A stretch of DNA of 42,208 bases from an uncultured Thermodesulfobacteriota bacterium (GCA_964632275.1 CAZWCD010000002.1:1-42208); one strand, 5' to 3'; shown: positions 4,784 through 42,208, counted from the stretch's first letter. The notes: generated from the letters alone by a model not told the origin. Program-made: numbers and translations.

Positions 4784-4786
4784 AAC

Positions 4787-6574: not shown

Positions 6575-8005
6575 TTAGGAACCTGAGGTGTATACAGGCG
6601 AGGCGCGGAATACCGTGCGGAAGGGATCGATGCGGTATCCCCGTTCTTGCAATTCAGAGAACAGGGAGGCATCATACTTCAGGAGCCATAGTTCCTTTCC
6701 ACTCAGCGTTGCCCGGTTGATTGCCTCGAGGCTCTGTGCGCGCCTGGCATCGCCCCATGTCCCCGATAGCCATTCCTTATTAATCCACTTACCGGTATAG
6801 GAAGCTCCGCAAAGATAATGTTCAAAAAGAATGCCCTCCGTCCACGGACCAACGACAATAAAATCGGGCTGTGCGGCATGCTTAAGAGCGTAAACCGTCT
6901 TGCGGTATTCTTCAAATCGTGCACTGATGTTCAAGATCTGATTGCGGGTGATGAATCCTGAGCAGGTTACAGAAATAATAAAAAAAAGATACACGGCTGC
7001 GGTAAAAAGGCGGCTTTTATGGCGCACAACATTGATAACCGATTGAAAGCCCAATCCGCCCACAATGCACATGAGTGCATAAAAGGGAAGTTGCACCGGT
7101 ACATCGCCAAAACGCTCTCCGGCGACAAAGGTAAAAAGCCAGATGCAGAAAATGGTCGGCCCCCAGTCACGATACCTTCTGCATCTGATCAATTCGATTG
7201 TTCCGGCGATCAGGAAGGGTACATACCAGAGCATGGTTGAAAAAAATTCGCGGTATTCCTTCAAGAGCGCAGCGCTGATTGCAAGTGACGCACGTGATGC
7301 TTTCAGGAGGCCTCGTCCTCCCACAAAGTAGTCAGGAGCAACGGCGGAGACTGCGACAATAATAATAATGAGAGCACTAAAGGCAAATCTGGTGAGCAGC
7401 GGTCTCTCTTTCCGGAACGGAACGAGCATGGCGAGGCCGAAGACGGCACTCGGGGTGATGAGAAAGGAAAGGGCGTAGGATATGCCCGCAATGGCCGGCT
7501 TGTTGTAGAGAAGCAGGACAATCGAGAGGAGAAAGAAAAACAACTGTGCACCGTAAACTTCAGCAAAAACAGCGTTAGCGGTGAAGAGCGGATTGCTGAA
7601 CAAGATAAAGCATGCTGCAAACGATGCCAACCTGTTTTCGGTGAGAGAGGATGTGATCAGAAAAAGTACCGATATGCTGAGGGCAGCGCAGAAGCAGCTC
7701 ATGAGATTCAAGGCATAATCCGGAGGCAGTGGCAGGAGATGGATGAAGGGTAATCCAAGAAGGTAATATCCAAGGTGCACGGTTCGGTGCGTTACATCGA
7801 GGTCATGTATCTGCTGGAGGTAAAGGGCGGCATCGCCGCCCGTCAGGACCCGGGGAGCAAGCAGAGCGAAATAAAAAAATAAACAAAGAAAGAAGAGTGC
7901 AGAACAAATGCGCGAATTTTGAAGAAGCGCCTCAATGGAAAGACGATTCAAGAAGCTGCACGCAGGCTTTGTATCAGAACGTAATGTTGCGTTGTATAAT
8001 TTCAT
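6575..8005 (-). CDS. Polytopic membrane protein with a C-terminal soluble domain; GT-C-like (DUF2723/PMT-like?), function unknown
   Basis: 476 aa with about 11 hydrophobic helices. The first loop is APRVLTGGDAALYLQQIHDLD, and a C-terminal domain of about 110 aa is hydrophilic. Its ATG overlaps the upstream gene stop (ATGA at 8002-8005). Confidence 0.55.
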   Translation of the reverse strand: MKLYNATLRSDTKPACSFLNRLSIEALLQNSRICSALFFLCLFFYFALLAPRVLTGGDAALYLQQIHDLDVTHRTVHLGYYLLGLPFIHLLPLPPDYALNLMSCFCAALSISVLFLITSSLTENRLASFAACFILFSNPLFTANAVFAEVYGAQLFFFLLSIVLLLYNKPAIAGISYALSFLITPSAVFGLAMLVPFRKERPLLTRFAFSALIIIIVAVSAVAPDYFVGGRGLLKASRASLAISAALLKEYREFFSTMLWYVPFLIAGTIELIRCRRYRDWGPTIFCIWLFTFVAGERFGDVPVQLPFYALMCIVGGLGFQSVINVVRHKSRLFTAAVYLFFIISVTCSGFITRNQILNISARFEEYRKTVYALKHAAQPDFIVVGPWTEGILFEHYLCGASYTGKWINKEWLSGTWGDARRAQSLEAINRATLSGKELWLLKYDASLFSELQERGYRIDPFRTVFRASPVYTSGS

Positions 8006-9678
8006 CGATCCTGCCAGCCGCCATTCATGGTTGCCTGTTTCACGTATACATCCGCTTCAGGGTTGTGGCCCAATTGCCTTAAAATAATTCCCAATCGATT
8101 ATCCACCGTTGCCGGATTTGCAACAAAAGGGCGGGCCTCTTGTAACAGCAAGGATGCCTCTTCCAGCCTGCCGGTCTGAACCAGACTGGTTGCAAGTAAT
8201 ACTTTAACTGATGCAGCATATTGTTTAGAAAAATAAACGGGAGTATATCCCAGGGCTGATGTGAATGCATGTAGTGCCTGCTCCGGTTGGTTGCGTTCCT
8301 GATAGATGATGCCGAGGTTCTTATAGGCGGTATAAAAATTTTTAACCGGCTCGAAGTACCGCGGGTCTTCTCGCCGGTTTACCGGTACAGGAGCCATAAC
8401 TTTAACCGTGCTTTGGAGGAAGGAGAGGGGGGTTTTATAGTCATGATTTCTGTTGATGGTGCCGGCAGCGTACAATAATGCAATCAGCATGGTTCCGCAC
8501 AACGCAATGCGCCTATACCCGGCGCTGCTGATGGAGCGCGCTTGCATGCCCCGATCAACAATAAGAGAAAGGCTGAGGCAAAACCCAATAGAGGGGAGGT
8601 ACAGGTAGTTCTCTTTCGCCAACGCCGGAAGCGTCACGATGTTGAGAACGGGAAGTAGGGTGATCAAAAGCCAGCCCAGTGCAAAACCGAGCATGCGGAA
8701 GCGAGGTAATGAAGCTGCTGTTGCCGCCAGGAACAAGATGCTTGTCCAGGTAAGCGGTGAAGTGAGCGCCTCGCTCAAGGAGCCGGGAACGACTATATTG
8801 CTGTAATAGCAAAGCTGAACTGGGAACAAGAGTTTCACAAGATAAAATCCCAACGTTTTCAAAACCAGCCATACCTGTTGGCTGAATGAATACCAGGGCA
8901 GGGCGGCGTGCGGGCTTCCGCTGCCGACTGCAACATTTCGTAAGACAAGGTAGCACAGAGCAGTTGCCATCACACCCAATAAGGGCGCGATAAAGGATCG
9001 ATCCTTCCAGGAGAATCGATGCGCATCGCAGAAGAAACAGTAGAGAATATATGCCAGCGGCAGGGTTATTGCAATCTCCTTGCACAGCAGCGCACAGAAG
9101 AAACAGAGACAGGCACCCGCAAGCGGCAGTTTTGCAACGGCAGCAGATTGCGACTGCCTGCTATTTATAAGCAGGATGAATGACCAGAGGTAGAACAGGG
9201 TGGCAAGAATGTCCGTACGGCCCATAACATACGAAACCGAATGGGTATGGATGGGATGAACCGCAAATAAAGCTGCGCCGGCAAATGCCGGCCAGCGCCT
9301 GCCGGAAAGGAACGAGAGAAACAGTAGGTACACGGTGATTGTAACAAGGCAATGAAACAATATGTTGCTGAGATGATGGCCGGCGGGATTGAGCCCGTAC
9401 AATGTAAAGTCGACGAAATGGGTGAGTATTACAAGGGGACGATAATAGATGAATGATTCACCGCCAAGCTTTCCCCAGTAGTCTGAAGTGAATGAATTCA
9501 GAACAGTGCTGAATTCGCCGATATGTTTATTTCGCAGGATAAATTGGCGATCACCCGCAACGAAATCGTTGCCAAGGGTGTTCCAGTAAACCACTGCCGC
9601 GAGCAGGATCAATAGGGGAAGAATGTACCTCTGGAGCCATTTTCCCAAGGCTGTGTCTTCCATGATTATTGGTTGCAT
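8002..9678 (-). CDS. TMTC-like GT-C membrane protein (DUF1736-type core) with C-terminal TPR repeats; putative protein O-mannosyltransferase-like
   Basis: 558 aa. Motifs: NTLGNDFVAGDRQFILRNKHI ... YYRPLVILTHFVDFTLYGLNPAGHHLSNILFHC ... AVHPIHTHSVSYVMGRTDILATLF, then TPR-like repeats (YKNLGIIYQERNQPEQALHAFTSAL...). It is a paralog of 11640..13703. Confidence 0.65.
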   Translation of the reverse strand: MQPIIMEDTALGKWLQRYILPLLILLAAVVYWNTLGNDFVAGDRQFILRNKHIGEFSTVLNSFTSDYWGKLGGESFIYYRPLVILTHFVDFTLYGLNPAGHHLSNILFHCLVTITVYLLFLSFLSGRRWPAFAGAALFAVHPIHTHSVSYVMGRTDILATLFYLWSFILLINSRQSQSAAVAKLPLAGACLCFFCALLCKEIAITLPLAYILYCFFCDAHRFSWKDRSFIAPLLGVMATALCYLVLRNVAVGSGSPHAALPWYSFSQQVWLVLKTLGFYLVKLLFPVQLCYYSNIVVPGSLSEALTSPLTWTSILFLAATAASLPRFRMLGFALGWLLITLLPVLNIVTLPALAKENYLYLPSIGFCLSLSLIVDRGMQARSISSAGYRRIALCGTMLIALLYAAGTINRNHDYKTPLSFLQSTVKVMAPVPVNRREDPRYFEPVKNFYTAYKNLGIIYQERNQPEQALHAFTSALGYTPVYFSKQYAASVKVLLATSLVQTGRLEEASLLLQEARPFVANPATVDNRLGIILRQLGHNPEADVYVKQATMNGGWQDR

Positions 9679-16206: not shown

Positions 16207-17366
16207 AGGTTCTTTTTGTCATTCGCTATTTCCATCCGTTTGTGGGCGGAACAGAAAAGCAGGCATTAACCCTGGCATCTCGTCTGGCTACAGACGGGAT
16301 TGATGTAACCATCCTGACCAGCCGTTTCAGTTATAGCTGGCAGCGTGCGGAGCGTATCCAGAACGTCCGGGTGATCCGGCTGCCTTCGCCAAGCATAAAA
16401 GTAATCGGCGCAATGGTGTTTCTCACCTGCTTGGCTCGCTACCTCATCAGATACAAAAATCACTATTCAATCATTCATACGTTTCAGATCGGCTACACAT
16501 CATTTGTGAGCATTGTCCTCGCCATGATTTTAAGGATACCATCACTGATTAAAGTGGCGAGCAGCGGCATCGGCGGGGATATACAGAGAGCAAAAAAAAC
16601 TGCCTGGGGAAAACTGTGCCTGCTGATGGCAAAAAGGGCAACGCGCATAATTGCGGTCAGTGATAGTGTGAAGAGAGAGCTGATGGATGAGCACGTGCCT
16701 TCCTCCGCTATCGAGTCCATCGCAAATGGTGTCGATCTCGAGCTGTATGAACCATACAAGGATAAACCTGCAATGCGCCGGCGCCTACAACTGCCTGATA
16801 AAATAACCATAGTTTATACCGGACGGCTTTCGCCGGAAAAGGGCGTCGATTTCCTCATTCGCGGCTTTGCACAACTGGTGAAAACGCAGCCATGTCAACT
16901 CTTAATCATTGCGGATGGGCCGGAGCAGGAATCTGTTGTCAAACTGATTGCCGACCACAATCTGAACGGTTTGGTGCTGCTGGTTTCAAAGGTGGAGGAG
17001 GTGGCGCCGTATCTGAAGGCGTCTGATTTGTTTGTGCTTCCATCGAGGTTTGAAGGATTGTCAAATGCATTGCTTGAGTCGATGGCCTGTGGATTGCCGG
17101 TCATATCGACCAGTGTTGGAGGCAGCAGGGATATTATAGATGATGGGGTGAATGGACTCCTCGTTGATGTAGAGGCAACGGATCAGTTGAGGAATGCCAT
17201 GACGCGGGTTTTATGTGACCGGCAACTGGCCGCAACGCTCGGGGTGAATGCCCGGGCAGCAGTAGAAGCAAAGCATGATATGAAGAATATTGCGAATGCA
17301 TATTGTGTCCTCTACCGTCATCTGAGCTCCGAAGTGCATGCGAAGGCCGCAGATGAGTATGCTTAA
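16203..17366 (+). CDS. Glycosyltransferase family 4 (GT-B)
   Basis: 387 aa: MKVLFVIRYFHPFVGGTEKQ, then EGLSNALLESMACGLPVISTSVGGSRDIIDDGVNGLLV (EX7E region). ATGA overlap with the ligase gene. Confidence 0.88.
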   Translation: MKVLFVIRYFHPFVGGTEKQALTLASRLATDGIDVTILTSRFSYSWQRAERIQNVRVIRLPSPSIKVIGAMVFLTCLARYLIRYKNHYSIIHTFQIGYTSFVSIVLAMILRIPSLIKVASSGIGGDIQRAKKTAWGKLCLLMAKRATRIIAVSDSVKRELMDEHVPSSAIESIANGVDLELYEPYKDKPAMRRRLQLPDKITIVYTGRLSPEKGVDFLIRGFAQLVKTQPCQLLIIADGPEQESVVKLIADHNLNGLVLLVSKVEEVAPYLKASDLFVLPSRFEGLSNALLESMACGLPVISTSVGGSRDIIDDGVNGLLVDVEATDQLRNAMTRVLCDRQLAATLGVNARAAVEAKHDMKNIANAYCVLYRHLSSEVHAKAADEYA

Positions 17367-18730: not shown

Positions 18731-18800
18731 AAACATCAAATATGTTTGCTTAGGATAAAAAGGAAGATCTTAGCCTCACATCGCTTTGTCGGTCCAAACT

Positions 18801-20024: not shown

Positions 20025-20050
20025 TGACGAGCCAAAGATAGTGGCAATTT

Positions 20051-20105
20051 CGGTTGGAGCGCCTTCAGGCGCGATGCATCTGGGGATTAAAGCCGCTCCA
20101 GCCGG
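20051..20105 (-). repeat. REP-like element family B, full copy in inverted orientation
   Basis: CGGTTGGAGCGCCTTCAGGCGCGAT...TAAAGCCGCTCCAGCCGG aligns, by eye at roughly 80 percent, to the reverse complement of 18675..18730. Confidence 0.7.
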
Positions 20106-20124
20106 TTCATAAAAGCAGTCAACC

Positions 20125-23341: not shown

Positions 23342-23342
23342 T

Positions 23343-24551: not shown

Positions 24552-24630
24552 GGCCGCATTGGTGTGCACAGACCAATAGATGCATAAACCATAGACCAGT
24601 GCTCGGTCTGCCTAGGCCAAGAGGGAGATT

Positions 24631-25737: not shown

Positions 25738-25873
25738 GTACAGGTGTGCGATCCATTACCGGTAGACGTAAGCGATCATCCTAACAGAATTCTCTAAATT
25801 ATTTGGCAGCAAGATTAGTGGGTGTGGTGACGTCTATACGGAAACAACTAATGATGAGAATTGTACTAAGACA

Positions 25874-28527: not shown

Positions 28528-28550
28528 AAGAACAATAAAAAGAAAACAGG

Positions 28551-30967: not shown

Positions 30968-31752
30968 CTGTAACCACCATGACTTCGATACAGCGCGTTA
31001 TCTTTGCTGCGCGGGTGCTGAAGAGTATGCTCGGCCTGCCGGTCAGCTACCGTGACCACGAGTTTTCATATGTAAAGGGGCGTGCGGACTGGTCCCGGAT
31101 GCCCGCGCAGCGGATCAGCCTTTTGAGCAACCTTTTTTGCACGGATGCCGATGCAATCAAGGCCTACGTCAATGAAGCAGAGGCCATAGAACTAGAAGAA
31201 AGGGATTGTGCATGTCTGGACAATGCGACCGCAATCGGCAACCCCATGGGTACAACCGACCGGATTACCCTGTATGCGGTAATCCGTATCTGTAAGCCAC
31301 ATGTAGCAGTTGAGACGGGCAGTGCCGCCGGGGCCTCGGCGACCTATATGCTTTCCGCCATGGAGAAAAACGACCGCGGCATCCTGTATTCAATTGACGC
31401 TGCCGCCGATCCTTCCCATCTGGGCTGCCTGGTGCCGGTAGCGCTGCGCGCAAGGCTCAAGCTCCGGCACGGCAACAGCCTTGCGCTTATACCGGAGATT
31501 GCAGGTGAAGCGGGCGCTATTGATTTTTTCTTGCATGACAGCCTGCACACCTATGCGCACATGACGGCGGAATATGAACTTTTCTACCGGCATATGGCAA
31601 CGTCCGGCGGCGTCATCTGCTCCCATGATATTCTCATGTCAAACGCCTGGGATCATTTTATGCAGCGACATCGGTTAAAAAGCTGGGGAGCTTTGAAAAA
31701 CCTGGGTGTTTGCAGGGTCGGGAACCCTGCAGGAAGCGGCAGCCATCAATAA
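30964..31752 (+). CDS. Class I methyltransferase-fold protein (Methyltransf_24 / CmcI-like)
   Basis: ATG 30964 overlaps the upstream stop (ATGA). Motifs VAVETGSAAGASATYML and IDFFLHDSLHTYAHMTAEYELF. Confidence 0.55.
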   Translation: MTVTTMTSIQRVIFAARVLKSMLGLPVSYRDHEFSYVKGRADWSRMPAQRISLLSNLFCTDADAIKAYVNEAEAIELEERDCACLDNATAIGNPMGTTDRITLYAVIRICKPHVAVETGSAAGASATYMLSAMEKNDRGILYSIDAAADPSHLGCLVPVALRARLKLRHGNSLALIPEIAGEAGAIDFFLHDSLHTYAHMTAEYELFYRHMATSGGVICSHDILMSNAWDHFMQRHRLKSWGALKNLGVCRVGNPAGSGSHQ

Positions 31753-31791
31753 TCGCCACCAGCCTTGAATTGCCGGGCTACAGGATATTCC

Positions 31792-32973
31792 ATGCAAGGC
31801 ATAGGCGGTCAAAAACCGCTGGTGAGTGTGATTATTCCAACCTATAACCGCGTCCATATGATCGCGCGGTGTTTGGATAGCGTGCAGGCACAGACATTCA
31901 AGGATTATGAAATTATCGTGGTTGATGACGGAAGCACTGATGCCACCCGTGATTTTTTGCGAAGGACGTATGGAGATCGCATAAGGTACATTGCGCACTC
32001 AACAAACAAAGGATTGTCGGCAGCCCGCAATACCGGGATCGAGCATGCAACGGGAAGGTATATTGCCGTGCTCGATGATGACGACTCGTGGCTTCCGGAA
32101 AAGCTGGCGCTTCAGGTAGATCTGATGCAAGCGAATCCGGACGTTGTATTGGCCTATTGTGGAACCTTGAAGGTCGATTGCCAGGGAGAACTGCTCGAGG
32201 AAGTAAAGCCCGAAATGAGGGGCCATATATTCGCAGAAATGCTCAATCGAAATTGTCTCAAGGGGCCGGCCTCGGTTGCGATCTTCGCCCGAGAGGTTCT
32301 CGGGGCAAGCGGCGTTTTTGATACCAGCCTTTCTTCATGTGCTGATTGGGATCTGTGGCTTCGGATCGCCCGGTGCGGAAGGGTCGATTATGTAGACCGG
32401 CCGCTGGTCAAATACGTGATGCATCAGAGCAATATGAGTAGTAATATTCACTACATGGCGCGGGATACCTTTGCCATTCTCGACAAATACCTGCCGCTCC
32501 TGGAACAGGATAACGGTTCTGCGTATCCGGGTGATAGGATATACAGTAATCACCTGATTCACTTTGCCTGGGAATATTATGAGCAGCATAATCTAAAACA
32601 ATTCAGCGATCTGCTGCGTCAGGCCCTTGATCGGGATCCGGCCAACCGCATACCCATTCGAGGCGATTGCTTGCCGGAGAAGGAAACGGCGGTCATGGGT
32701 CTGTTGCGGGACTACTGGCGCAAAGCCGGTTCTGCACGGGGACGTCGACCGCGTTCGAGCGCATTCAGCGACCAGTATATCCAGCTTGCCTGGGAATATT
32801 ATCATCAGGGGAATATGGCGAAGTTCCGCCGGTGCATCGTCCTTGCGTGCGGATATGCTTTTCCTAACCTGCTGCTGCGGCTGGCAATTCCCTTTTTCAA
32901 ATCCTACATGGGAAAAGGGGTTGCCGAGTCCATACACGGGGCGCGCAGGCGTGTGCGCCATGCCGGTAATTAA
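31792..32973 (+). CDS. Glycosyltransferase family 2 with a C-terminal repeat-containing extension of about 150 aa
   Basis: VSVIIPTYNR...IIVVDDGSTD...LSAARNTG...AVLDDDD (GT-A DXD). The C-terminal half carries two copies of [FL]AWEYY[EH]Q. The track start (31765) is a TTG. Confidence 0.85.
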   Translation: MQGIGGQKPLVSVIIPTYNRVHMIARCLDSVQAQTFKDYEIIVVDDGSTDATRDFLRRTYGDRIRYIAHSTNKGLSAARNTGIEHATGRYIAVLDDDDSWLPEKLALQVDLMQANPDVVLAYCGTLKVDCQGELLEEVKPEMRGHIFAEMLNRNCLKGPASVAIFAREVLGASGVFDTSLSSCADWDLWLRIARCGRVDYVDRPLVKYVMHQSNMSSNIHYMARDTFAILDKYLPLLEQDNGSAYPGDRIYSNHLIHFAWEYYEQHNLKQFSDLLRQALDRDPANRIPIRGDCLPEKETAVMGLLRDYWRKAGSARGRRPRSSAFSDQYIQLAWEYYHQGNMAKFRRCIVLACGYAFPNLLLRLAIPFFKSYMGKGVAESIHGARRRVRHAGN

Positions 32974-33009
32974 TATACGCGGCCGGTCCGCTGCAGCATA
33001 ATTAGAGGT

Positions 33010-33969
33010 ATGGCCGCCACACAAACAGGACATTCGCGCATGTTATTCAGACGAAAAAATAGCGGAAAAAAAATTGCCGTGTGCCTGGGTGATGGCTGCG
33101 GGCTGGGCAATCTGCTGCAGGCGCTCCCGGCGGTTCAGGCACTGCATGAAGGCGGAAATATCTGTGATCTCTTTCTCTCCGGATTTGTGTATGACGGCAT
33201 TGCAGACGTGGTGCGGGGTCAGCCGTATGTGCGCGACATTTACGAAAACACCTATGAGAACCGGGAAGATATGTATGATGTTTGCATCGTATCCTTCCTC
33301 TCGGATCACCGGGTGGGAAATGCAAAACAATATGTAAAACTAAGGAGGGATTGGAAGAAGATATCGGAATATGGGCAGTACTGCCGTGCGGCGGAACAAT
33401 GCGGCGCAAAGGATTTCAAGCAACCCCGACTGAATGTTGCGGAACTGCGCTTTAACCTGGTGTTCCCAAGTGTGATGATTCACGCAGGATGCACCAACCG
33501 AACGTATTGGGAGCGACGAAAATGGAGCCATTATGCGGAGCTGGCGGACCTGCTGCTGAATGACGGATTCCATGTTTATTGCTGCGGGACGGCGGATGAA
33601 CAGGTCAATCACCCGGGAGTTGCGGCCTACACCAATCTTCCTATTCAGGAAACCGCGGCACTGATACAGCAATGTGATCTCTTTGTGTCAAACGACAGCG
33701 GGCTCATGCATTTGGCGGCCTCCCTGGGGAAAAAGCAGGTTGCCATATTCACTGCGACCAGCGATAAGAAAAGCGGACCCTACTACAATACTCACGCCCG
33801 GGTGGTACGGCCTGCCCTTGCCTGCTATCCCTGCTATGGCAACGATAAGGCATGGAATGAGTGTGCTCATTGGCAGTGCAGGGATGCAATAACCATATCG
33901 CAAATCCACGATCTGATCAGGAAGTTGGCGTCTGAAAAATCGCAGGGACCTGCAGCCGCACTGGTATGA
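33010..33969 (+). CDS. Glycosyltransferase family 9 (heptosyltransferase-like)
   Basis: 319 aa with LFVSNDSGLMHLAASLGKKQVAIF and C-terminal CYPCYGNDKAWNECAHWQC, as in WaaC/WaaF-type enzymes. RBS GAGGT. Confidence 0.75.
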   Translation: MAATQTGHSRMLFRRKNSGKKIAVCLGDGCGLGNLLQALPAVQALHEGGNICDLFLSGFVYDGIADVVRGQPYVRDIYENTYENREDMYDVCIVSFLSDHRVGNAKQYVKLRRDWKKISEYGQYCRAAEQCGAKDFKQPRLNVAELRFNLVFPSVMIHAGCTNRTYWERRKWSHYAELADLLLNDGFHVYCCGTADEQVNHPGVAAYTNLPIQETAALIQQCDLFVSNDSGLMHLAASLGKKQVAIFTATSDKKSGPYYNTHARVVRPALACYPCYGNDKAWNECAHWQCRDAITISQIHDLIRKLASEKSQGPAAALV

Positions 33970-34748
33970 TGGCACCACATATGAGAAAGCGCGTATCCAT
34001 CGTTATTGTTTCACATGATTTACATGACTATCTGGAGCGGTGTATTTCCAGCATTGAAAGGCATACGAAGGAAGATCTCGTCGAGAATCTGGTTATTGTA
34101 GATAATGCATCAACTCCGCCGCTCGTCCAGGCCGGGTTGACCGGGCTGACCGCTTTGACGGTTTCGCTTGTCCGTTTGGAGGGGAATGCGTCCTATGCCC
34201 ATGCAAACAACCGGGGGGTCGAGGCTGCCCGCGGTGATTATATATGCTTCATGAACAATGATGTAGAGGTGCTGCCGGGCTGGCTGGAGCCTCTTTATGC
34301 CGTCATCGATGCGGATGTACACGTGGGGGCGGTCGGGCCGAAAATGATATTTCCCGATGGCAGCATCCAGTTTGCCGGATACGAAGTAAACCCCGCCACC
34401 GGGTTCCAAAGGCACCGGTTCAGGGAAGCCCGGGTGCATCATTCGATACAGGACGCAAACATTGCCGGTCCGGTGACCAACCTGACCGGCGCGTGCCTTC
34501 TTTTGAGAAGGGAAGACGCCCGTTTTGACGAGCGCTATTGGTACGGGTGTGAAGACACTGATCTGTGCGTCCAATTGAAGCAGAAATACAAAAAAGTATA
34601 TTATCAGCCGGCAGCGATGGTGATTCATCACGAAGAAATGAGTCGATCAAGCGGTGTGACCGAGATTGATTATGAGCATAACCGGGAATTGTTCAGAAAA
34701 AAGTGGGGAAGGGACTGGAAGCACTATTTATGGCAGGTGGTCACCTAG
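33966..34748 (+). CDS. Glycosyltransferase family 2
   Basis: 260 aa: VSIVIVSHD...VIVDNASTPP...HANNRGVEAARGDYICFMNNDVEV. ATGA overlap upstream. Confidence 0.85.
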   Translation: MMAPHMRKRVSIVIVSHDLHDYLERCISSIERHTKEDLVENLVIVDNASTPPLVQAGLTGLTALTVSLVRLEGNASYAHANNRGVEAARGDYICFMNNDVEVLPGWLEPLYAVIDADVHVGAVGPKMIFPDGSIQFAGYEVNPATGFQRHRFREARVHHSIQDANIAGPVTNLTGACLLLRREDARFDERYWYGCEDTDLCVQLKQKYKKVYYQPAAMVIHHEEMSRSSGVTEIDYEHNRELFRKKWGRDWKHYLWQVVT

Positions 34749-34778
34749 GCACAACTGTCTTCCACAGGATAGCCAGGT

Positions 34779-35891
34779 ATGAAGATTGGTTTTTTTTACG
34801 TACCATATTACCCGCTGACCATGGGCAGATCCGTCCATGGCTACAACCTGGTCAGGGCGCTCAAAAAGCGGGGTCACATCATCCTCTCCTGCCTGGGTGA
34901 TGGGGATCCGGAATGCACTCATTATGAACGGAGCAAATCGGGCGCGCTCAACGTAGCCCGTCAAGCTGATGTGCTCTACATCAGGATCGCAGGCAGGCCG
35001 GTCCATTCCTATCTGGAGCGGGCGACCCTGCTCAAGCTCCTGCGCCCCTTTTCCCTTCCGGTCGTGTGGGAGGTGAACGCGCCGGTTGAGGAACTGCAGG
35101 GAAGCTATCCGCCGGGCAGGGAGCGGGATGCAATGATTAAGCGGGAACACAGCAAGCGCAAAGCGCTGGCGCATCTGGTCGATGCCGGTATCGGCGTTTC
35201 GGAGGTGCTGAAGCGCTATATCAGCAATGACTTGAACATTAAGAAGTCCTATTCAATACCCAATGGGTCGGATCCCGTCCTGTTTGATCCGGCGCGGGCA
35301 GCTGAAACGGTGCTTGAACGGTTTCCCGAAACATTCAAGGTGTTCTGGATGGGCAATGCCGCGACCTCATGGCAGGGGATTGAAGTAATGCTTGAAGTCG
35401 CTGAGAAGATGGAAAAGCGTGACCGGAATGTCTTATTTATTCTGGTGACGGGAGAAAGCCTGGTGACGCTTCCGGTGCGAAGCAATGTGCTGCTCCTTCG
35501 GCAGTTGAGCTACACTGATCTTCCGCATTACCTTGCGGCTGCCGATGCCTGCTTGTGCCTGTATAAGCCGTATGATTGGATCAGCTACGGATTCTATGGC
35601 TCGTCGCTCAAACTGTTCGACTACATGGCTGCTGGAAAACCGGTACTCGCCTCACGGATGGGACAGATAGCAGATATTATCAGGGATGGTGATAACGGGC
35701 TGCTGGTTGATAATGATGGTGAACGTATCGCTGAAAAGATCATCGAGTTGAAGGATAATCCTGCCCAGAGAACGCTGCTGGGAAGCAATGCACGAAATGA
35801 TGTTATTTCCTATTATAACTGGGACCGTGTAGCAGAAGAAACAGAAAGGGTTTTACAAGATGCGTGCCAGCGACATACAAGCGGTCGGTAA
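34779..35891 (+). CDS. Glycosyltransferase family 4-like (GT-B)
   Basis: 370 aa with SSLKLFDYMAAGKPVLASRMGQIADIIRDGDNGLLV. It resembles 28551..29711. Confidence 0.75.
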   Translation: MKIGFFYVPYYPLTMGRSVHGYNLVRALKKRGHIILSCLGDGDPECTHYERSKSGALNVARQADVLYIRIAGRPVHSYLERATLLKLLRPFSLPVVWEVNAPVEELQGSYPPGRERDAMIKREHSKRKALAHLVDAGIGVSEVLKRYISNDLNIKKSYSIPNGSDPVLFDPARAAETVLERFPETFKVFWMGNAATSWQGIEVMLEVAEKMEKRDRNVLFILVTGESLVTLPVRSNVLLLRQLSYTDLPHYLAAADACLCLYKPYDWISYGFYGSSLKLFDYMAAGKPVLASRMGQIADIIRDGDNGLLVDNDGERIAEKIIELKDNPAQRTLLGSNARNDVISYYNWDRVAEETERVLQDACQRHTSGR

Positions 35892-37050
35892 AAAGCAACC
35901 TCTGGTACTGATGATAATAGGCTTATTTTATCCCTGGGTGGGAGGTGCCGAGCGGGAGTGCCATAAACTTGCCGGCAAGTTAAGAGAGGAAGGCGCCACG
36001 GTTTCTGTCTTAACCCAATACTGTGCCGGGTTACCAGAATGTGAGCAGATCGATGGCATCATGGTCTATCGCAAGATGAGAGGGTGGCACTGGTTTGAAA
36101 TCACCTACATGCTCTCTGTTTTAAGATTTCTGATAACACATCGGGAACGATATGACATCATTCAGTGTTTTGGCTTGTATTTGTTTATTCCGCCCGCTCT
36201 GGTGATGAGGTATCTCTTCGGGAAAAAGATTGTTGCACGGCTTGAATGCTCCGGCCGTTTTGGTGATTTCTGGCGAATTAAGCAGCTCAGGTATGGAAAG
36301 CTGGTGATGGCATGCGCAAAACTGCTCAATGCTGTTATTTTCATCTCAAAAGAGATTGCAGAGGAATTGCTTGCTAACGGCTTCCCGGCAGGAATGCTGA
36401 TGCATGTAACCAATTGTGTTGATATCGGACAGTTTGTCCCTGCTGATAATCGTCAAGCCACAGCGGCAAAAGAGATCTGCTTTGTGGGGAGACTTGAGCA
36501 GCAAAAAGGTTTGGAATATTTGATCAGGGCTATAAATCTGCTGAGAAAAGAGCTTGACGATATTAAAATAACCATTGTTGGTGATGGTAGTATGAGGTCC
36601 GCTCTTGAAGCGCTTTGTGAGCAGATGAGCGTGGGGCAGTATATTGTTTTTGCCGGTGCCAGAGACGAAGTTCTCAGCTACTATCAGCGAGCACGGGTTT
36701 TTGTGCTCCCTTCTCTTTCAGAGGGATTGCCATTGACTTTGCTTGAAGCGATGGCTTGTGGACTGGCGGTGATTGCAAGCGATGTGGGAGGAAACAGAGA
36801 GGTTTTGGATCCTCATAATCCGGAACGTGGCATACCGGAAGCGCACTATTATATTGGCGAATGCGGCATCCTGGTCAATCCCGGCGACGCTGCGGGGCTC
36901 GCAGGAGCCATCCAGAGATTGCTAACCGACGATGATCTGGCCAGCCGCCTGAACTCGCGGGCACGGTCGCGCGTGGTAGAAACGTATGCCCTGGACAAAA
37001 TAATTAATGACTATCGTTCGCTCTACCAGTCGCTCATGTGCGGCCATTGA
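35860..37050 (+). CDS. Glycosyltransferase family 4 (tandem paralog A)
   Basis: LVLMIIGLFYPWVGGAERE...GRLEQQKG...PSLSEGLPLTLLEAMACGLAVIASDVGGNREVL. Start uncertain: 35860, or ATG 35911. Confidence 0.85.
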   Translation: MRASDIQAVGKKQPLVLMIIGLFYPWVGGAERECHKLAGKLREEGATVSVLTQYCAGLPECEQIDGIMVYRKMRGWHWFEITYMLSVLRFLITHRERYDIIQCFGLYLFIPPALVMRYLFGKKIVARLECSGRFGDFWRIKQLRYGKLVMACAKLLNAVIFISKEIAEELLANGFPAGMLMHVTNCVDIGQFVPADNRQATAAKEICFVGRLEQQKGLEYLIRAINLLRKELDDIKITIVGDGSMRSALEALCEQMSVGQYIVFAGARDEVLSYYQRARVFVLPSLSEGLPLTLLEAMACGLAVIASDVGGNREVLDPHNPERGIPEAHYYIGECGILVNPGDAAGLAGAIQRLLTDDDLASRLNSRARSRVVETYALDKIINDYRSLYQSLMCGH

Positions 37051-37085
37051 ACCACACGCACACGGAAAGCATCCTTTGTAAAGGC

Positions 37086-38234
37086 ATGGCTACACAAACG
37101 AGTCCCCGGGTATTGATGATAATCGGCTTGTACCATCCCATCGTGGGCGGCGCCGAAAAAATCTGTCAGGCTTTGTCAAAAAGCCTTTATCAGCGCGGCG
37201 TGCCGGTTGCCGTTCTAACCCAGCGCCAGCGGGGTTTGCCCGAGTGCGAGGTTATTGATGCCATACCGGTCCACCGGAAAATGAAATGGTGGCATCCCTT
37301 TGGAATTGCGTACATGCTTTCAGTGCTGCTGTTCCTCGTGCGCTACCGGCGGGAATACGAAATTATCCAGTGCTTCGGGCTCTTTCTCTTTATTCCGCCC
37401 GCCATGCTTATACGCTATTGCTTCAAAAAGAAGGTTGTGCTGCGACTTATGTGTTCAGGCCCCTACGGCGATTTTGCAAATATCGAGGGGCTCACCTTCA
37501 AAAAACTGATCATTGCCAGCGCCATGCATGCGGATCGCATTGTTTATATGTCGGCCGACATGAAGGAAGAGCTCTTACAGAACCGGTTTGCGGAAGAGAA
37601 ATTGACCTGTATTCCGAATGGGGTTGACACTGAGCGTTATAGTCCCTCTGGTGCGCCGGGACACCATGTCTGTTTTGTCGGCAGATTGGAGGCGCAAAAA
37701 GGTCCCGGCTATCTGATCAGTGCCTTTTCCACGATGGCGCAGGAGAGCGGTACGGCCAAGCTTTTTTTGGTGGGGGACGGGAAGCAAAAGCCTCTCCTGG
37801 AAGAATTGACAAGGCATTTGGCGATGGACGAAAAGGTGGTCTTCGCCGGCTTTTCAAACGATGTCCTCAGTTATTACCGGCAGGCGCGCATCTTCGTCCT
37901 GCCATCGCTCTCAGAGGGGATGTCATCGGCATTGCTCGAGGCAATGGCATGCGGGCTCGCGGTCATTGTTACATGGGTTGGAGCGAGTGAAGAATTGGTC
38001 GGAGCGGAACGGACGGGGAAGGAAATGCCCCGGGGACACTACCACATTGGCAAAAGGGGTATAGTGGTACATCACCACGATGAAAGAGCTCTGGCTGAAG
38101 CATTGCGGGTTCTGCTGCATGACGCGCAGCTCGCCCAAAAGCTGGGGCACCGCGCCCGGGAATTTGTACTCACATCATATTCCCACGCAACCATGGTCAG
38201 CTCATATCAGGCTCTTTACAGCAGCCTGGGGTGA
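37086..38234 (+). CDS. Glycosyltransferase family 4 (tandem paralog B, with divergent donor-site motifs)
   Basis: VLMIIGLYHPIVGGAEK...GRLEAQKG...PSLSEGMSSALLEAMACGLAVIVTWVGASEELV. The track start (37038) is a GTG. ATG 37086 is preferred. Confidence 0.8.
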   Translation: MATQTSPRVLMIIGLYHPIVGGAEKICQALSKSLYQRGVPVAVLTQRQRGLPECEVIDAIPVHRKMKWWHPFGIAYMLSVLLFLVRYRREYEIIQCFGLFLFIPPAMLIRYCFKKKVVLRLMCSGPYGDFANIEGLTFKKLIIASAMHADRIVYMSADMKEELLQNRFAEEKLTCIPNGVDTERYSPSGAPGHHVCFVGRLEAQKGPGYLISAFSTMAQESGTAKLFLVGDGKQKPLLEELTRHLAMDEKVVFAGFSNDVLSYYRQARIFVLPSLSEGMSSALLEAMACGLAVIVTWVGASEELVGAERTGKEMPRGHYHIGKRGIVVHHHDERALAEALRVLLHDAQLAQKLGHRAREFVLTSYSHATMVSSYQALYSSLG

Positions 38235-38257
38235 AATGACCGCTGACGATAGAAGCC

Positions 38258-39388
38258 ATGGATTCCGATAAAGTAGTCATGATCATATCCCAGTTCTATC
38301 CGCTGCTGGGCGGCGCCGAAATTCAGGCGCAGCGCCTGGCTTCCACTCTGAGGGCCAGGGGCGTGGATATATTTGTACTGACACAGCGAATTAAAAACCT
38401 TCCAGCCTATGAAGAAATCGATGGTATTCCGGTATACCGCTCTATCAGGACGGTTAATGTTCCGCTCCTTTTCGGATTGCTCTATGCGTCATCAGTCGCA
38501 TTCTTCCTTTACCGAAGACGGAATGATTATACAATCATCAACTGCAATATATTGCAGGAATTACAAACAATAGTGTCAATAATATTCAAGTTGCTGTTTA
38601 AAAAAAGGGTGGTGGCAAAAATGTCATCATCAGGACTGACAAGTGACCTTAAACTCATGAGACGGACACTCGCGGGAAGACTTACCCTGCAATTGCTGAA
38701 AAAGGCCGACCGGATTATCTCGCTTTGCAGTGTGGCCACGTCTGAGCTGTTGCGTGCAGGGATACCTGCTGACAACATTGAGCAGATAAGCAACGGTGTG
38801 GATACCGGCCGTTTCCCCATCAGCACCGGCCGGGGTAACAGGAAAACAAAGCTGATTACCTTTATCGGACGAATGGATGCATTCAAGGGTGTGGAATATC
38901 TTCTTGACGCATTCAGGCAGGTCATTGCCGGAGGCGCAGATGCGCGGCTTCAGCTCATTGGCACCGGACCTGATGAAGAAAAATTGAAGCGGATTGCCGA
39001 AGATGATGCTCTTACGGATAATGTCATATTTAAGGGACGGCGGGAGAATGTGCTGCATGAGCTTTCCGAAACGGATATTTTTGTACTGCCTTCGCTCTCA
39101 GAAGGAATGTCGAATGTTCTCCTTGAAGCCATGTCCTGTGCATTACCGGTTGTGGCTACCGGAGTAGGCGGGGCGCTGGATATGATTCGCCACGGCATTA
39201 ATGGCATGTTAGTGCCTCCCGGTGATGCGGAGGCTTTGAGAGATGCACTGGTTTACCTGCTCAGCAATCCGTCAGTGGCGATTAGTCTAGGTAAAGAGGC
39301 ACGAAAGACAATTGAAGAGAGATTCACGCTATCGGGCGCTGTTGATTGCTATCGGCGCTTATATGGGGAATTAAACGCCGCACCCTAA
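38258..39388 (+). CDS. Glycosyltransferase family 4 (tandem paralog C)
   Basis: VVMIISQFYPLLGGAEIQ...GRMDAFKG...PSLSEGMSNVLLEAMSCALPVVATGVGGALDMIRHGINGMLVPPGD. Confidence 0.85.
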   Translation: MDSDKVVMIISQFYPLLGGAEIQAQRLASTLRARGVDIFVLTQRIKNLPAYEEIDGIPVYRSIRTVNVPLLFGLLYASSVAFFLYRRRNDYTIINCNILQELQTIVSIIFKLLFKKRVVAKMSSSGLTSDLKLMRRTLAGRLTLQLLKKADRIISLCSVATSELLRAGIPADNIEQISNGVDTGRFPISTGRGNRKTKLITFIGRMDAFKGVEYLLDAFRQVIAGGADARLQLIGTGPDEEKLKRIAEDDALTDNVIFKGRRENVLHELSETDIFVLPSLSEGMSNVLLEAMSCALPVVATGVGGALDMIRHGINGMLVPPGDAEALRDALVYLLSNPSVAISLGKEARKTIEERFTLSGAVDCYRRLYGELNAAP

Positions 39389-39436: not shown

Positions 39437-40366
39437 ATGAAGCTCACATATACCGGATTGAGCATAGGCGCACTTGTCGTCATAATCATTATTCAGGCGT
39501 TGTATTTAAAATCCTTGCCCGGGTCGCTGGTACGCGTCTATCACACCCGGGATGCCGGTGAGTTTAATAAGTCCCCGGATGATGACATGACCGTTGCCTA
39601 TGACGGGTATCGCTTTGACTACCGGACATCACTCAGATTACGCGATGAGGAGGAGAGAGAGATAAAGGCACGTTTGCAAGGCCGGGGTCAGACCGATATG
39701 CAGGTGCTGGTCGATATCGCGACCTGGGTCCGTGAAACGATGAGCTCCGGAAAGAGCGGCGGATCAAATGAGAGGATCAGTGCAGATGCGGTGAAGCCTG
39801 CAGCACGCGACGGAGAAAGCAGAGGACTTTGTGACCGCTATGCGAACTATTTTGCCGCTGCGTGCCAGGCAAACGGAATTCCGGCTCGCGTCATCGAGCT
39901 CAACGGGCATGTTGTCCCCGAGGCGTTTCTCCGGAATGCCGGACGCTGGGTAATGATCGACCCGACCCTGGGTTACTATCTGACGCGGGAGGGAATTGTT
40001 CTCTCGGTTGCCGACATTATCAATTCCTATAAAAACGGCAATGAGATTGATGCCGTTGTTTTTGCTGCTGAACGGGGAGATGATAGCTTATACCGGGCAG
40101 CCGATGACAGCACCCTGCGGGGGATCTACCTGAACGGGTGTACCGTCGTGTCCAATCAGCAGATGGAACGCGGGCAGATTCTGCACTTTATCGCGACAAG
40201 CTTTTCACTGCCGGTAGCGAAGCTGCAGTACGTGGAAAGCAATACCATCAAAATCGGAATGAAGGAATTAATTCTGCGCTCCATCCTGGGGATTAACCTG
40301 GTTGTCTTTCTCCTGCTTGCACTGGTTGCGGCGGTAAAGATGTTCCGCAGGGGAAGAGCACGGTGA
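39437..40366 (+). CDS. Membrane-anchored transglutaminase-like (Cys-His-Asp papain-like fold) protein
   Basis: 309 aa with an N-terminal TM (GLSIGALVVIIIIQALYL) and a C-terminal TM (ILGINLVVFLLLALVAAV). Candidate triad: C in RGLCDRYANYF, H in LNGHVVPEAF, D in RWVMIDPT. Confidence 0.7.
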   Translation: MKLTYTGLSIGALVVIIIIQALYLKSLPGSLVRVYHTRDAGEFNKSPDDDMTVAYDGYRFDYRTSLRLRDEEEREIKARLQGRGQTDMQVLVDIATWVRETMSSGKSGGSNERISADAVKPAARDGESRGLCDRYANYFAAACQANGIPARVIELNGHVVPEAFLRNAGRWVMIDPTLGYYLTREGIVLSVADIINSYKNGNEIDAVVFAAERGDDSLYRAADDSTLRGIYLNGCTVVSNQQMERGQILHFIATSFSLPVAKLQYVESNTIKIGMKELILRSILGINLVVFLLLALVAAVKMFRRGRAR

Positions 40367-40400
40367 ACGCGAGGTGCCTGCGTTTCAGTACGGTGGTGGC

Positions 40401-42208
40401 ATGAAGCGATTGAATGTACGGAAAAATGATGCGCTCAGGAAATGTCTTTTGTTGCTGTTCGTGGTTATTGTCCTGGCGTCCTGCAGGAATGAAATCAAGC
40501 TGCTGTGGGCTACCGACCCGCCGGTGGCATGGACCTACAACTGCTCATTTGATGCTGACCGGCTTCTCAATGACGCCAGAATCATCGGACGGGAGGGCTT
40601 TACGCCCGACCGCCAGGGATTGCAACTGCCGCCAGCTTCATCGGGTAGGCTTGTGCTGGCGTTTGAGAAGGAACCACAACAGGGATCCCTGCTCCGGGTG
40701 TGGTTTTATGGAGAGAAGGACGGCAATCGTCCAAATGCCATAACAGTTCTACCTGATGGGGGAAGCCCCTTCAGGGTGGCGGAAAACGAAAATCTTGTTG
40801 GCGCCGTATTTGACCTAAGCGATCGCCTGCGCGGGGTGAGTAGATTTCAGATTTCCTTTGCGGCGGAAAACCACGCTCCTTTTCCGGCCCGGGTGCTTGA
40901 TGCGGTTGAGGTGGCGGCCGGACTCGGGACTCAGGTAAAGCCCTCATTGCCGAATCTGCCCAAACTGCTCGGGCTGCTCATTTCGGCATATCTGATTATT
41001 GCGCTGCTGTTCCCACAAAACATGTTTAACAGCCAGAAACTGTGTCGTGTGCTGATCCTGCTCATCCTGCTGCTTGCGGTGTACCTGAGATGGAACGAAT
41101 TGCTCAGAGTATCAGGAACCATCCTTGATGAAGACGCGAGCGGATATTATAGTTATGCCCAGAAAATACAGCTGGCCGGTGATCAGGGTTTTTACTCGGC
41201 GCAATTCGAGAAACGGGAGCCGCTCTTCATTTTCCTGGTAAAGCTCTTTTTTATCGTATTCGGCGTATCTGCAACGCATCTGCGATTTGTCTCGTTCACA
41301 TTTTCTCTGGTGGCACTTTATCTTACCTACCGGATCGGCCGTGAATGGTTCCATGAGGCGGCAGGGTTGATTGCGGCGTTTATCCTTGCCGTTCACCCTT
41401 ATCTCATACAGCTGGGCGCCCGGGGGCTGCGGGAGGAATGGTTTACCGCGCTGCTGCTGCTCTTTGTCTACCTTGGATATGTTAGAACATCAATAAGCCG
41501 TTGGGCGAGGGCTATTGTGAGCGGCATTATCGTTGGCTGCATATTCCTGACTCGCTCGGAATGTGTTCCCATGATCGCGATCATACTGCTGTTGTATCCT
41601 CTCCTGACAGGAAAGAAGTGGAACTATGCAATGGCGGCTATTGCTCTGGTGCTCGCACTCTCTCTGTGGATTCCTCATCAGTACAGCATCTATAATAAAT
41701 ATGGCGATTTCTTCTATACGGCAAATCAATATGCCCGATTTTATGCCAACCGGGAATTCGCCGGCACGCCCGGATTTCCCACGAGGGAAGAGATAGCAAC
41801 CAAGGGGATGTATTACGGTCGGAAGATGACGCCGGTGGAGTATTATTGGGCTCACCATACCCCCGGGCAATTGCTATCCGGTAGCATGATCGGTTTTATG
41901 AAGATTCATCTGAGGATGCCGTTCTCCTTTATCTCCGGCAGGGGAAATGCTGAACAAGTGACATATGTGCTCGGCAGCAGCTTGCAGCATCCCGGCGTGA
42001 AGGAACTATCGTGTGTGGCAAAGCTGGCAGGAAAGCTGGTCAGGGAAAACCTGGCGGCGAGCTGCATGGGATTGGCGGTTCTGCTCGGCTTTCTCGGCGG
42101 CCTGCTGCTCATGGGAATGCATCGCAACTGGATCATCTTCGTGTATCTGATTCTCTTTCAGATGCATACTGCATTTTTAGCCTCTCTCGGGCTTGATCAG
42201 CGGCTGAC
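40401..42208 (+). CDS. 5' part (602 codons, runs off the window) of an ArnT/PMT_2-like GT-C glycosyltransferase with an extra N-terminal domain of about 160 aa
   Basis: I translated this codon by codon from ATG 40401 to 42206 and found no stop. It is absent from the ORF track because it has no in-window stop. N-terminus MKRLNVRKNDALRKCLLLLFVVIVLASC (signal/lipobox-like LASC). A soluble segment follows to about residue 190. The GT-C core has the loop LDEDASGYYSYAQKI, then REPLFIFLVKLFF and AVHPYLIQLGARGLREEW. Confidence 0.75.
   Translation, partial: MKRLNVRKNDALRKCLLLLFVVIVLASCRNEIKLLWATDPPVAWTYNCSFDADRLLNDARIIGREGFTPDRQGLQLPPASSGRLVLAFEKEPQQGSLLRVWFYGEKDGNRPNAITVLPDGGSPFRVAENENLVGAVFDLSDRLRGVSRFQISFAAENHAPFPARVLDAVEVAAGLGTQVKPSLPNLPKLLGLLISAYLIIALLFPQNMFNSQKLCRVLILLILLLAVYLRWNELLRVSGTILDEDASGYYSYAQKIQLAGDQGFYSAQFEKREPLFIFLVKLFFIVFGVSATHLRFVSFTFSLVALYLTYRIGREWFHEAAGLIAAFILAVHPYLIQLGARGLREEWFTALLLLFVYLGYVRTSISRWARAIVSGIIVGCIFLTRSECVPMIAIILLLYPLLTGKKWNYAMAAIALVLALSLWIPHQYSIYNKYGDFFYTANQYARFYANREFAGTPGFPTREEIATKGMYYGRKMTPVEYYWAHHTPGQLLSGSMIGFMKIHLRMPFSFISGRGNAEQVTYVLGSSLQHPGVKELSCVAKLAGKLVRENLAASCMGLAVLLGFLGGLLLMGMHRNWIIFVYLILFQMHTAFLASLGLDQRL

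Follow-up and report, generated by a model that had tools for sequence, protein, structure and literature searches.

The 42,208-nucleotide stretch of DNA analysed here (GCA_964632275.1, CAZWCD010000002.1:1-42208; hereafter the window, meaning the whole stretch) comes from an uncultured Thermodesulfobacteriota bacterium of sulfate-reducer type and carries one type IVa pilin gene surrounded by a conserved glycan block of about 38 kb. We read the locus as a PilSR/sigma-54-controlled pilin at the core of a periplasmic glycosylation island, and hold this reading to be probable, if modestly so. The window begins with pyrR-pyrB-pyrC, which are followed by a pilR-like and a pilS-like gene, the genes of the polytopic membrane proteins M1 and M2 (both on the minus strand) and M3 and M4 (on the plus strand), and the pilin gene. 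From M5 to the window end a plus-strand array runs uninterrupted, and all intergenic gaps are at most about 320 bp. Seven polytopic open reading frames (ORFs), M1 to M7, were found at the coordinates listed in Table 1, exactly where an earlier note on this DNA had placed them, and the start of M3 at 9995 is confirmed by a gene call in the locus L001.

Synteny of the block extends to at least four related genomes of uncultured Thermodesulfobacteriota, with the Wzm/Wzt cassette swapped, and since the genes are kept together in these genomes their clustering is not a matter of chance. The PilR proteins of the nearest metagenome-assembled genomes (MAGs) of the lineage are 95%, 85% and 71% identical to that of the window. 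The order M1-M2/(M3)-M4-pilin-Wzy_C-GT4-rSAM-MT-YfhO (GT, glycosyltransferase; rSAM, radical SAM enzyme; MT, methyltransferase) is kept in L085, in L006/L090 and in L171, and partly in L087/L088. GCA_016294905.1 (L085) shows it with M3 in place. In MAG MFD03899.bin.1.233 (L006 and L090 are two pieces of one 1.27-Mb contig, CAWCBP010000001.1) the whole island stands behind the same pilin, in the order pyrRBC-pilR-pilS-M1-M2-M4-pilin-Wzy_C ... YfhO ... AsnB-sulfotransferase-GT4-GT4-MT-GT2-GT9-GT2-GT4-GT4-GT4 and at 50-80% protein identity; M3 is absent from L006, and the block from AsnB to GT4g is syntenic in L090 at 50-80% identity. A third long-read MAG (L171) has pyr-pilR-pilS-M1-M2...pilin-Wzy_C, and two JGI contigs (L087/L088) keep M1, M2, M3, M4, the pilin, the GT4, the radical SAM enzyme and the methyltransferase. 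The most stable core therefore consists of the four GT-C genes, the pilin and the GT4-rSAM-MT trio, because the Wzy_C and YfhO genes are missing from L087/L088. Conservation of the gene neighbourhood around the pilin, proposed in the earlier note as a check, is thus borne out by a block kept as a unit in relatives.

Two features of these relatives deserve mention. The M2, M4 and Wzy_C homologues of the long-read MAGs are broken across several frames (L006:14500-21383 and L171:1-7000), and we suspect homopolymer sequencing errors and not pseudogenes. L087 carries two large sulfatase/phosphodiesterase-family proteins (4559-6451 and 18989-21388) at the places of Wzy_C and YfhO. We suspect that they are membrane-anchored and LtaS/EptA/PptA-like, and they could put phospho-form modifications on the pilin instead of glycans.

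The pilin is a canonical PilSR/sigma-54-controlled major pilin with its own transcription unit. Its control by PilSR follows from the PilS and PilR genes upstream together with an invariant sigma-54 promoter. The consensus TGGCAY-N5-TTGCW has a single exact match in the window, TGGCATAGGATTTGCT, 112 nt upstream of the pilin start, and this promoter is invariant in L085, L006 and L087 despite diverged flanks. The description of the pilin as an orphan in the earlier note is therefore apt as regards the assembly genes, which are absent, and not as regards regulation, given PilR/PilS at 3395-6496 and the promoter. Downstream of the gene, the segment 14500-14560 folds with an energy of -32.6 kcal/mol (z = -9.9) into a strong terminator. 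A scan with sigma-70 and terminator consensus patterns gave no more sites in the window than in shuffled sequence and missed the pilin terminator. Among relatives the pilin is 69-94% identical, and its C-terminal GAQIE(I/V)RPSxIxRQTY is nearly invariant. An acidic segment, FDxDGxxxDDDYY, is also conserved and may bind calcium. The pilin has no conserved Cys pair, and the second Cys of its CVSTC is limited to the closest relatives; a radical SAM thioether on the CxxxC was considered and dropped, as this second Cys varies among relatives. We also note a purine-rich element, (G)GAAGGAGGTGAA, at 13945-13962, downstream of the sigma-54 promoter and ahead of the true ribosome-binding site; the four aligned relatives all keep it unchanged, and it has no match in Rfam.

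The proteins around the pilin are GT-C enzymes or ligases and not transporters, because the evidence from family (Wzy_C, YfhO and PMT_2 in Pfam), motif (M2 and M4, together with PMT_2/PMT matches) and fold (M1 and M3, by Foldseek) is in every case that of a GT-C enzyme or a ligase. The label GT-C/ligase given earlier thus stands for all seven as a class, with the correction that Wzy_C is a ligase/polymerase family and not a GT-C family in CAZy. GT-C enzymes are polytopic and share a conserved N-terminal helical module, with an acidic residue in the first extracytoplasmic loop. M1 belongs to a family of 71 members in which D58 is invariant, and has only a sub-threshold TMEM260-like match in Pfam (E 5e-4). 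Its AlphaFold 2 model, built from an alignment of homologues, has a mean predicted local distance difference test score (pLDDT) of 92.1, and when compared with the PDB by Foldseek it matches PglB, AftA, ArnT (TM score 0.63), ALG12, ALG9 and STT3 (E 2.5e-6 to 1e-4 for PglB, ArnT, ALG12 and STT3). All 18 matches at E <= 0.001 are GT-C enzymes; weaker GT-C matches come next, and transporter noise appears from rank 27. M3 has no match in Pfam; its homologues number more than 1200 and are spread over several phyla at 50-60% identity, and a part of them is annotated as PF19830 (DUF6311). In this family D49 is invariant. The M3 model, again from a homologue alignment, has a pLDDT of 87.8 and matches STT3, AglB, ArnT, AftA, DPY19 and PglB (E 7e-8 to 1e-5 for STT3, ArnT, AftA and DPY19). 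Here the matches at E <= 0.001 (21 of 21) are likewise all GT-C enzymes, followed by weaker GT-C matches and by transporter noise from rank 23. A phmmer search of the PDB with M1 and M3 gave nothing useful.

M2 and M4 are paralogues (28% identity), both with C-terminal TPRs. In M4 the repeats lie at 520-650, there are about 10 hydropathy peaks and a weak match to ArnT, and the conserved motifs are DD49-50, YRP82-84, R156xD, K201E202, E350..Y354 and Y273x6P280, the last within a proline motif Y273-x6-P280-x6-P287. DD, YRP, RxD, KE and E.R.Y are invariant or nearly so across the M4-family alignment. TPR families dominated the Pfam results for full-length M4 homologues, and the N-domains were rescanned alone; PMT_2/PMT matches were then found in 5 of 14 members of the M2/M4 family, and a pilA-adjacent Desulfobacteraceae homologue also matches PMT_2/PMT. 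Several M4 homologues are labelled protein O-mannosyltransferase by JGI. These matches, with the motifs, point to M2 and M4 being GT-C proteins at the family level. Searches of the PDB returned only TPR proteins for M4 (phmmer) and only TPR designs, via the first repeat, for the M2/M4 N-domain profile (hmmsearch). By hhalign the M2/M4 family gave no significant match to the M3 family or to M7, and a borderline one to M1 (52% probability, E 1.4e-4) with the first-loop Asp aligned. M2 has GD in place of DD and KENYLY in place of EHRLY, with the Arg lost, and its orthologues (L085:1564-3240 and L087:8029-9867) likewise have GD and KEN(Y/F)LY; M2 may differ from its paralogue M4 in catalysis, or have a regulatory role.

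M4 resembles TfpW of group IV Pseudomonas aeruginosa, a 646-aa GT-C protein with 11 transmembrane helices, a Yx6PFx7P motif and a C-terminal TPR domain. The TfpW gene lies immediately downstream of pilA, and the enzyme is the pilin D-arabinofuranosyl transferase of P. aeruginosa/paraeruginosa (Pa5196, PA7); its periplasmic DDx motif is needed for pilin glycosylation, and ArnT is its best structural template. We judged the likeness from the published description of TfpW. M4 has the same first-loop DD, the Yx6P, the C-terminal TPR, the likeness to ArnT and the adjacency to pilA, and M2 shares these less completely. On the other hand, M4 lies upstream of pilA and TfpW downstream, the window has two paralogues (M2 and M4) and two further GT-C genes, and the D-arabinofuranose donor genes (UbiA/DPPR-synthase type, epimerase) were not found among the window ORFs. 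The motifs described for the eukaryotic TMTC proteins (GT105), namely DD, (S)YRP, RxD, KE, DW (in DUF1736) and ERxxY with a TPR tail (PMC7801869), give a second comparison. M2 and M4 share with TMTC1-4 the GT-C N-domain and TPR tail and the DD, YRP, RxD, KE and E.R.Y motifs, but they have no DUF1736 match and no DW motif, they are bacterial, and their donors are presumed to be undecaprenyl-linked and not dolichyl-linked. M1 shares with TMEM260 the weak Pfam match and the GT-C fold.

M5 is encoded by the next gene after pilA, on the same strand. TfpO and PglL are Wzy_C-family O-oligosaccharyltransferases that are typically encoded beside pilins (21 of 31 pglL homologues adjoin pilins); the glycans that they use are linked to undecaprenyl diphosphate and come from an O-antigen-type pathway. 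M5 shares with them the family, the place directly downstream of pilA and the orientation. It differs in having no PglL_A (PF15864), its glycan supply would be Wzm/Wzt-dependent, that is, through an ATP-binding cassette (ABC) exporter, and not Wzx-dependent, its pilin has no C-terminal Ser, and M5-type ligases are missing from the relatives L087/L088. M5 also falls below the thresholds of the PEP O-ligase and RfaL models (for RfaL it scores 22.7 bits where 277 is required), a weak negative only, because the WaaL/RfaL models are enterobacterial. By its sequence, M5 is not assignable to any one of PglL, TfpO and WaaL. No close relatives of M5 were found in the scan of genome contigs. M6 is a YfhO protein with a C-terminus similar to PgfM1/PgfM2, and is 70-80% identical in L090. 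When compared with the YfhO/CsbB/GtrA system of teichoic acids and of Pgf adhesin glycosylation, the window has no GtrA-type flippase and no clear CsbB/GtrB-type synthase, and the setting is Gram-negative.

The pairing of GT-C genes with pilA turns up in three phyla. The order pyrB-pyrC-pilR recurs in dozens of Desulfobacterota loci, and in distant Desulfobacterota one or two pilins come right after it. One or two genes of the M2/M4 type lie 1.5-3 kb downstream of pilA in nine of nine distant Desulfobacterota loci, the count covering those pilR-pilA loci whose sequence runs on downstream for 5 kb or more. A gammaproteobacterial MAG (L074:14542-19884) has a TMEM260-like GT-C (Pfam 5.5e-26), pilA, a 624-aa M4-like GT-C and a GtrB-like GT2. 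The M4-like protein is 25% identical to M4 (E 6e-17) and sits downstream of pilA, in the position of TfpW; a scan with it found only itself. We observe that this locus is a compact version of the arrangement in the window, with the donor synthase (a GtrB-like GT2 with C-terminal transmembrane segments) that the window lacks. In Gemmatimonadota, L194:9968-16253 has pilS-pilR-pilA followed by a YfhO-family protein (836 aa) and two PMT_2-type GT-C genes, and L191 and L199 resemble it by tblastn.

For Geobacter, xapD (GSU1501, an ABC ATPase) lies near pilA (GSU1496), and xap has been described as an extracellular polysaccharide system. Loci of this type were found with a G. sulfurreducens PilA query, which matched Geobacteraceae MAGs at 79-84% identity. 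L173, L174, L177 and L179 show Wzt-like, M2/M4-like, Wzm and Wzt matches after pilA. The Desulfuromonadales MAG L174 has pilS-pilR-pilA-N-pilA-C, a PilGHI-like ABC set, a TPR-tailed GT-C (609 aa, 27% identity to M4, E 5e-24), UbiA, Wzm, Wzt with Wzt_C and a B12-radical SAM gene; its UbiA-family prenyltransferase gene (Pfam 5e-30) directly follows the TPR-tailed GT-C, the two together at L174:13198-15880. In the TfpW system the polyprenyl-phosphate arabinose donor is the product of a UbiA-type phosphoribosyltransferase, and the UbiA gene of L174 hints that pentofuranose-type sugars could go onto Geobacter-type pilins. The window and these MAG loci have in common pilS/pilR, pilA, the TPR-tailed GT-C, Wzm and Wzt with Wzt_C. 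The split pilA-N/pilA-C, the PilGHI-like ABC set, the UbiA gene and the B12-radical SAM gene mark the Geobacter type, and of these the split pilin, the ABC set and UbiA are absent from the window. Over the 10 kb examined, Geobacter-type loci moreover carry just one GT-C gene and many fewer GTs. The relation to the Geobacter pilA-xap arrangement that the earlier note suggested is therefore supported as regards the shared parts (the TPR-tailed GT-C, Wzm and Wzt_C).

The gene content, the protein folds and families, the promoter, the terminator and the kept synteny are observed, whereas the acceptor (the pilin), the donors and the order of steps are what we infer. The prepilin would insert into the inner membrane, where the TPR domains of M4, and possibly of M2, would engage it, and sugars would be moved from polyprenyl-phosphate donors to Ser/Thr at the periplasmic face; M1 and M3 would be additional GT-C transferases. 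In parallel, the cytoplasmic GT4, GT2 and GT9 enzymes would build an amidated, sulfated and methylated glycan on undecaprenyl diphosphate, and Wzm/Wzt would export the tailored product. M5 might then ligate it to the pilin in the manner of TfpO/PglL, to the lipid A-core, or to both, and M6 and the PMT_2 enzyme M7 would attach periplasmic side-branch sugars. That at least the TfpW-like enzymes act on the pilin is plausible. We also considered a bolder form, which we think unlikely: the pilin would be hyper-glycosylated, receiving distinct sugars from each of at least 4-6 different periplasmic GT-C enzymes and an exported sulfated, amidated and methylated polymer attached by the Wzy_C protein, so as to give a glycan-sheathed pilus, and the pilA-linked GT-C arrays of Desulfobacterota, Gammaproteobacteria and Gemmatimonadota would represent a widespread, unrecognised pilin O-glycosylation with polyprenyl-phosphate monosaccharide donors. 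That all seven enzymes act after export in one pathway, or on the pilin, goes further than the data do: the pilin forms its own unit, and L087/L088 do without Wzy_C and YfhO.

Several findings weigh against a glycosylated pilin at the core of the island. The pilin gene is transcribed separately and closed off by a strong terminator, and the protein ends in ...RQTY (Tyr) without the C-terminal Ser that TfpO uses. M5 has Wzy_C alone and no PglL_A at E <= 0.01; Wzy_C and YfhO can be lost, as in L087/L088, with the pilin kept; M2 has lost two catalytic-motif residues; and GT9, Wzm/Wzt with Wzt_C and Wzy_C are together what an ABC-dependent O-antigen/LPS locus would also contain. M3 is not specific to pilins, because homologues occur in a pilin-free GT-C array, at L169:3390-15683 (a 6.5-Mb genome), with YfhO, PMT_2, TMEM260+TPR and small GT2 genes. 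Finally, the window has no clear gene for a polyprenyl-phosphate sugar synthase, for a flippase or for a priming enzyme; donor synthesis, flipping and priming must be encoded elsewhere.

A substantial possibility, if not the one we favour, is that the window holds an ordinary ABC-dependent lipopolysaccharide (LPS) O-antigen/core or exopolysaccharide locus beside pilA. M5 would then be WaaL, the GT9 and GT4 enzymes would make the core and O-chain, the GT-C enzymes would modify lipid A, core or polymer, and the pilin would not be a substrate. What keeps this reading credible is that the pilin has a transcript of its own, that some relatives can do without the ligase and YfhO, and that GT9, Wzm/Wzt and Wzy_C are classic LPS parts. 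The Wzm with its Wzt_C-bearing partner, the heptosyltransferase-family GT9 gene, the many GT4 and GT2 genes and the lack of PglL_A in M5 all agree with it, as does the pilin with a promoter and terminator of its own. The Wzm/Wzt cassette swap and low GC content are like those of serotype-variable O-antigen loci, and the Geobacter xap genes beside pilA are themselves described as a polysaccharide system. However, GT-C genes adjoin pilA repeatedly across distant lineages and phyla, M4 matches the architecture of TfpW, a Wzy_C gene right behind pilA is the placement known for O-oligosaccharyltransferases, and the linkage of the island to the pilin is kept at 55-80% protein identity. The two roles are also not exclusive, because they coexist in P. 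aeruginosa, where TfpO uses O-antigen units.

A general periplasmic protein O-glycosylation, with the pilin as one of many targets or as a mere linked marker and with GT-C enzymes that serve different clients like the eukaryotic PMT, TMTC and TMEM260 proteins, seems very improbable to us. Three of the GT-C families are indeed related to protein O-mannosyltransferases (PMT_2, TMTC-like and TMEM260-like), the YfhO relatives PgfM1/PgfM2 glycosylate adhesins, PglL systems are general, and M3 homologues occur in arrays without a pilin, but the linkage to pilA is tight and conserved and the island encodes no further candidate acceptor. The least probable explanation is that the TPR-tailed proteins are pilus biogenesis or stability factors, chaperones like PilF, PilW or Tgl on a degenerate GT-C anchor, with an unrelated glycan cluster downstream. 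It would account for the sub-threshold matches of the M4 TPR domain to the PilW and Tgl models, for the names PilF or TadD that JGI gives some homologues, and for the missing first Asp of DD and Arg of ExRxY in M2. Nevertheless, M4 and most family members keep DD, YRP, RxD, KE and E..Y invariant, the PMT_2/PMT matches are located in the N-domain, the TPR matches are generic and far under the model cut-offs, and TfpW, with the same architecture, requires its DDx for pilin glycosylation.

Pilin glycosylation is known in a few pathogens, where one enzyme beside pilA (TfpO/PglL or TfpW) modifies pili and so shields them from pilus-specific phages. In the window one sigma-54-controlled pilin has both enzyme types next to it, along with four more GT-C enzymes and a complete ABC-dependent glycan factory, and the lineage that conserves this arrangement is uncultured and anaerobic. 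We would regard this as an expanded variant of the known pilin-glycosylation and pilA-xap arrangements and not as a categorically new system. The earlier view that the system is undescribed applies to the combination and its size; pilin-glycosylating GT-C proteins with TPRs (TfpW) and Wzy_C proteins (TfpO/PglL) have already been described beside pilA. If the glycosylation island is what we propose, pilins would be glycosylated by GT-C enzymes far more often, and in more elaborate ways, than the single case of TfpW suggests, two uncharacterised GT-C families (that of M1, and M3/DUF6311) would gain a testable acceptor, and there would be consequences for the functional link between Geobacter-type pili and the adjacent xap polysaccharide genes.

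Table 1. Features of the window, with positions counted from its first nucleotide and the strand given as + or -.
Feature	Position	Strand	Basis or remark
PilR-like sigma-54-dependent response regulator	3395..4783	+	Response_reg + Sigma54_activat + HTH_8
PilS-like histidine kinase	4787..6496	+	6TM_PilS + PAS + HisKA + HATPase_c
M1, GT-C-fold membrane protein, small uncharacterised family	6575..8005	-	AlphaFold model + Foldseek
M2, TPR-tailed PMT/TMTC-like GT-C, diverged catalytic motifs	8002..9678	-	TPR at 450-520
M3, GT-C-fold protein, large conserved uncharacterised family (DUF6311-related)	9995..11650	+	AlphaFold model + Foldseek
M4, TfpW/TMTC-like GT-C, C-terminal TPR	11640..13703	+	ends 314 bp upstream of pilin, same strand
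Sigma-54 promoter of pilin, TGGCATAGGATTTGCT	13890..13905	+	exact consensus match
Type IVa major pilin, 153-aa prepilin	14017..14478	+	N_methyl E 1.9e-11; KG/FTLIELMIVVAIIGILAAIAVPNF
Intrinsic terminator 3' of pilin	14511..14549	+	16-bp GC-rich hairpin + U tract
M5, candidate Wzy_C-family ligase / O-oligosaccharyltransferase	14791..16206	+	Wzy_C 3e-24
GT4a glycosyltransferase	16203..17366	+	Glycos_transf_1 / Glyco_transf_4; kept in L085, L087
Radical SAM/SPASM enzyme	17338..18588	+	Radical_SAM + SPASM; kept in L085, L087
Trm112-like zinc ribbon + SAM methyltransferase fusion	18786..20024	+	Pfam; kept in L085, L087
M6, YfhO-family GT-C	20125..22590	+	YfhO 1.3e-28
Wzm permease	22574-23341	+	ABC2_membrane 8e-22
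Wzt ATPase with Wzt_C	23325-24551	+	ABC_tran 1e-20; Wzt_C 5e-11
Glycan assembly/tailoring genes (GT4b to GT4h)	24631..39388	+	Pfam, NCBIfam
GT4b	start 24631	+	
AsnB-type amidotransferase	start 25874	+	
Sulfotransferase	start 27679	+	
GT4c	start 28551	+	
GT4d	start 29708	+	
Methyltransferase	start 30943	+	
GT2a	start 31765	+	
GT9	start 33010	+	17 kb downstream of M5
GT2b	start 33966	+	
GT4e, GT4f, GT4g, GT4h	starts 34779/35860/37038/38258	+	
Membrane-anchored transglutaminase-like protein	39437..40366	+	Transglut_core 3e-10; hydrophobic segments at both ends
M7, PMT_2-family GT-C, cut by window end	40401..42208	+	PMT_2 1.6e-14

The remaining gene content agrees with the earlier count. Pfam and NCBIfam give 8 GT4, 2 GT2 and 1 GT9 cytoplasmic glycosyltransferases, an ABC-2 permease with an ATPase that carries Wzt_C, as expected for ABC-dependent glycan export, and a tailoring set of a radical SAM/SPASM enzyme, two methyltransferases, an AsnB-type amidotransferase, a sulfotransferase and a transglutaminase-like protein. 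Also as reported there, none of the window ORFs is a pilB/C/D/M-Q, Wzx, PCP/OPX, priming transferase or nucleotide-sugar gene, and the gaps between genes are too short to hide one. The window gave no tRNA genes and no matches in Rfam, and so there are no obvious landmarks of a mobile island. The best matches of GT2a and GT2b are GT2 enzymes of the TuaG/MftF type and not GtrB/ArnC, and GT2a has one C-terminal hydrophobic segment. An assignment of the radical SAM/SPASM protein as an anaerobic sulfatase-maturating enzyme was rejected, since no such model is among the 25 listed of its 62 NCBIfam matches and the window has no sulfatase.

The Wzm-Wzt-GT4b segment (22574-25737) is the GC minimum of the window, at about 44%. 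In L090 it is replaced (L090:2898-9900) by divergent Wzm/Wzt and other genes between flanks that are 60-80% identical; the Wzm/Wzt proteins themselves are just 24-32% identical, and about 4 kb of neighbouring genes differ. Judged by these identities, the difference looks like a cassette swap, a serotype-like exchange. At the distal end, the complete M7 is a protein of 641 aa, as seen in a Logan contig of the same organism (L003), where its gene is followed by a second transglutaminase-like gene (12960-13940) and then by a methyltransferase gene. Two transglutaminase-core proteins bracket the PMT_2 GT-C M7 at this end of the island.

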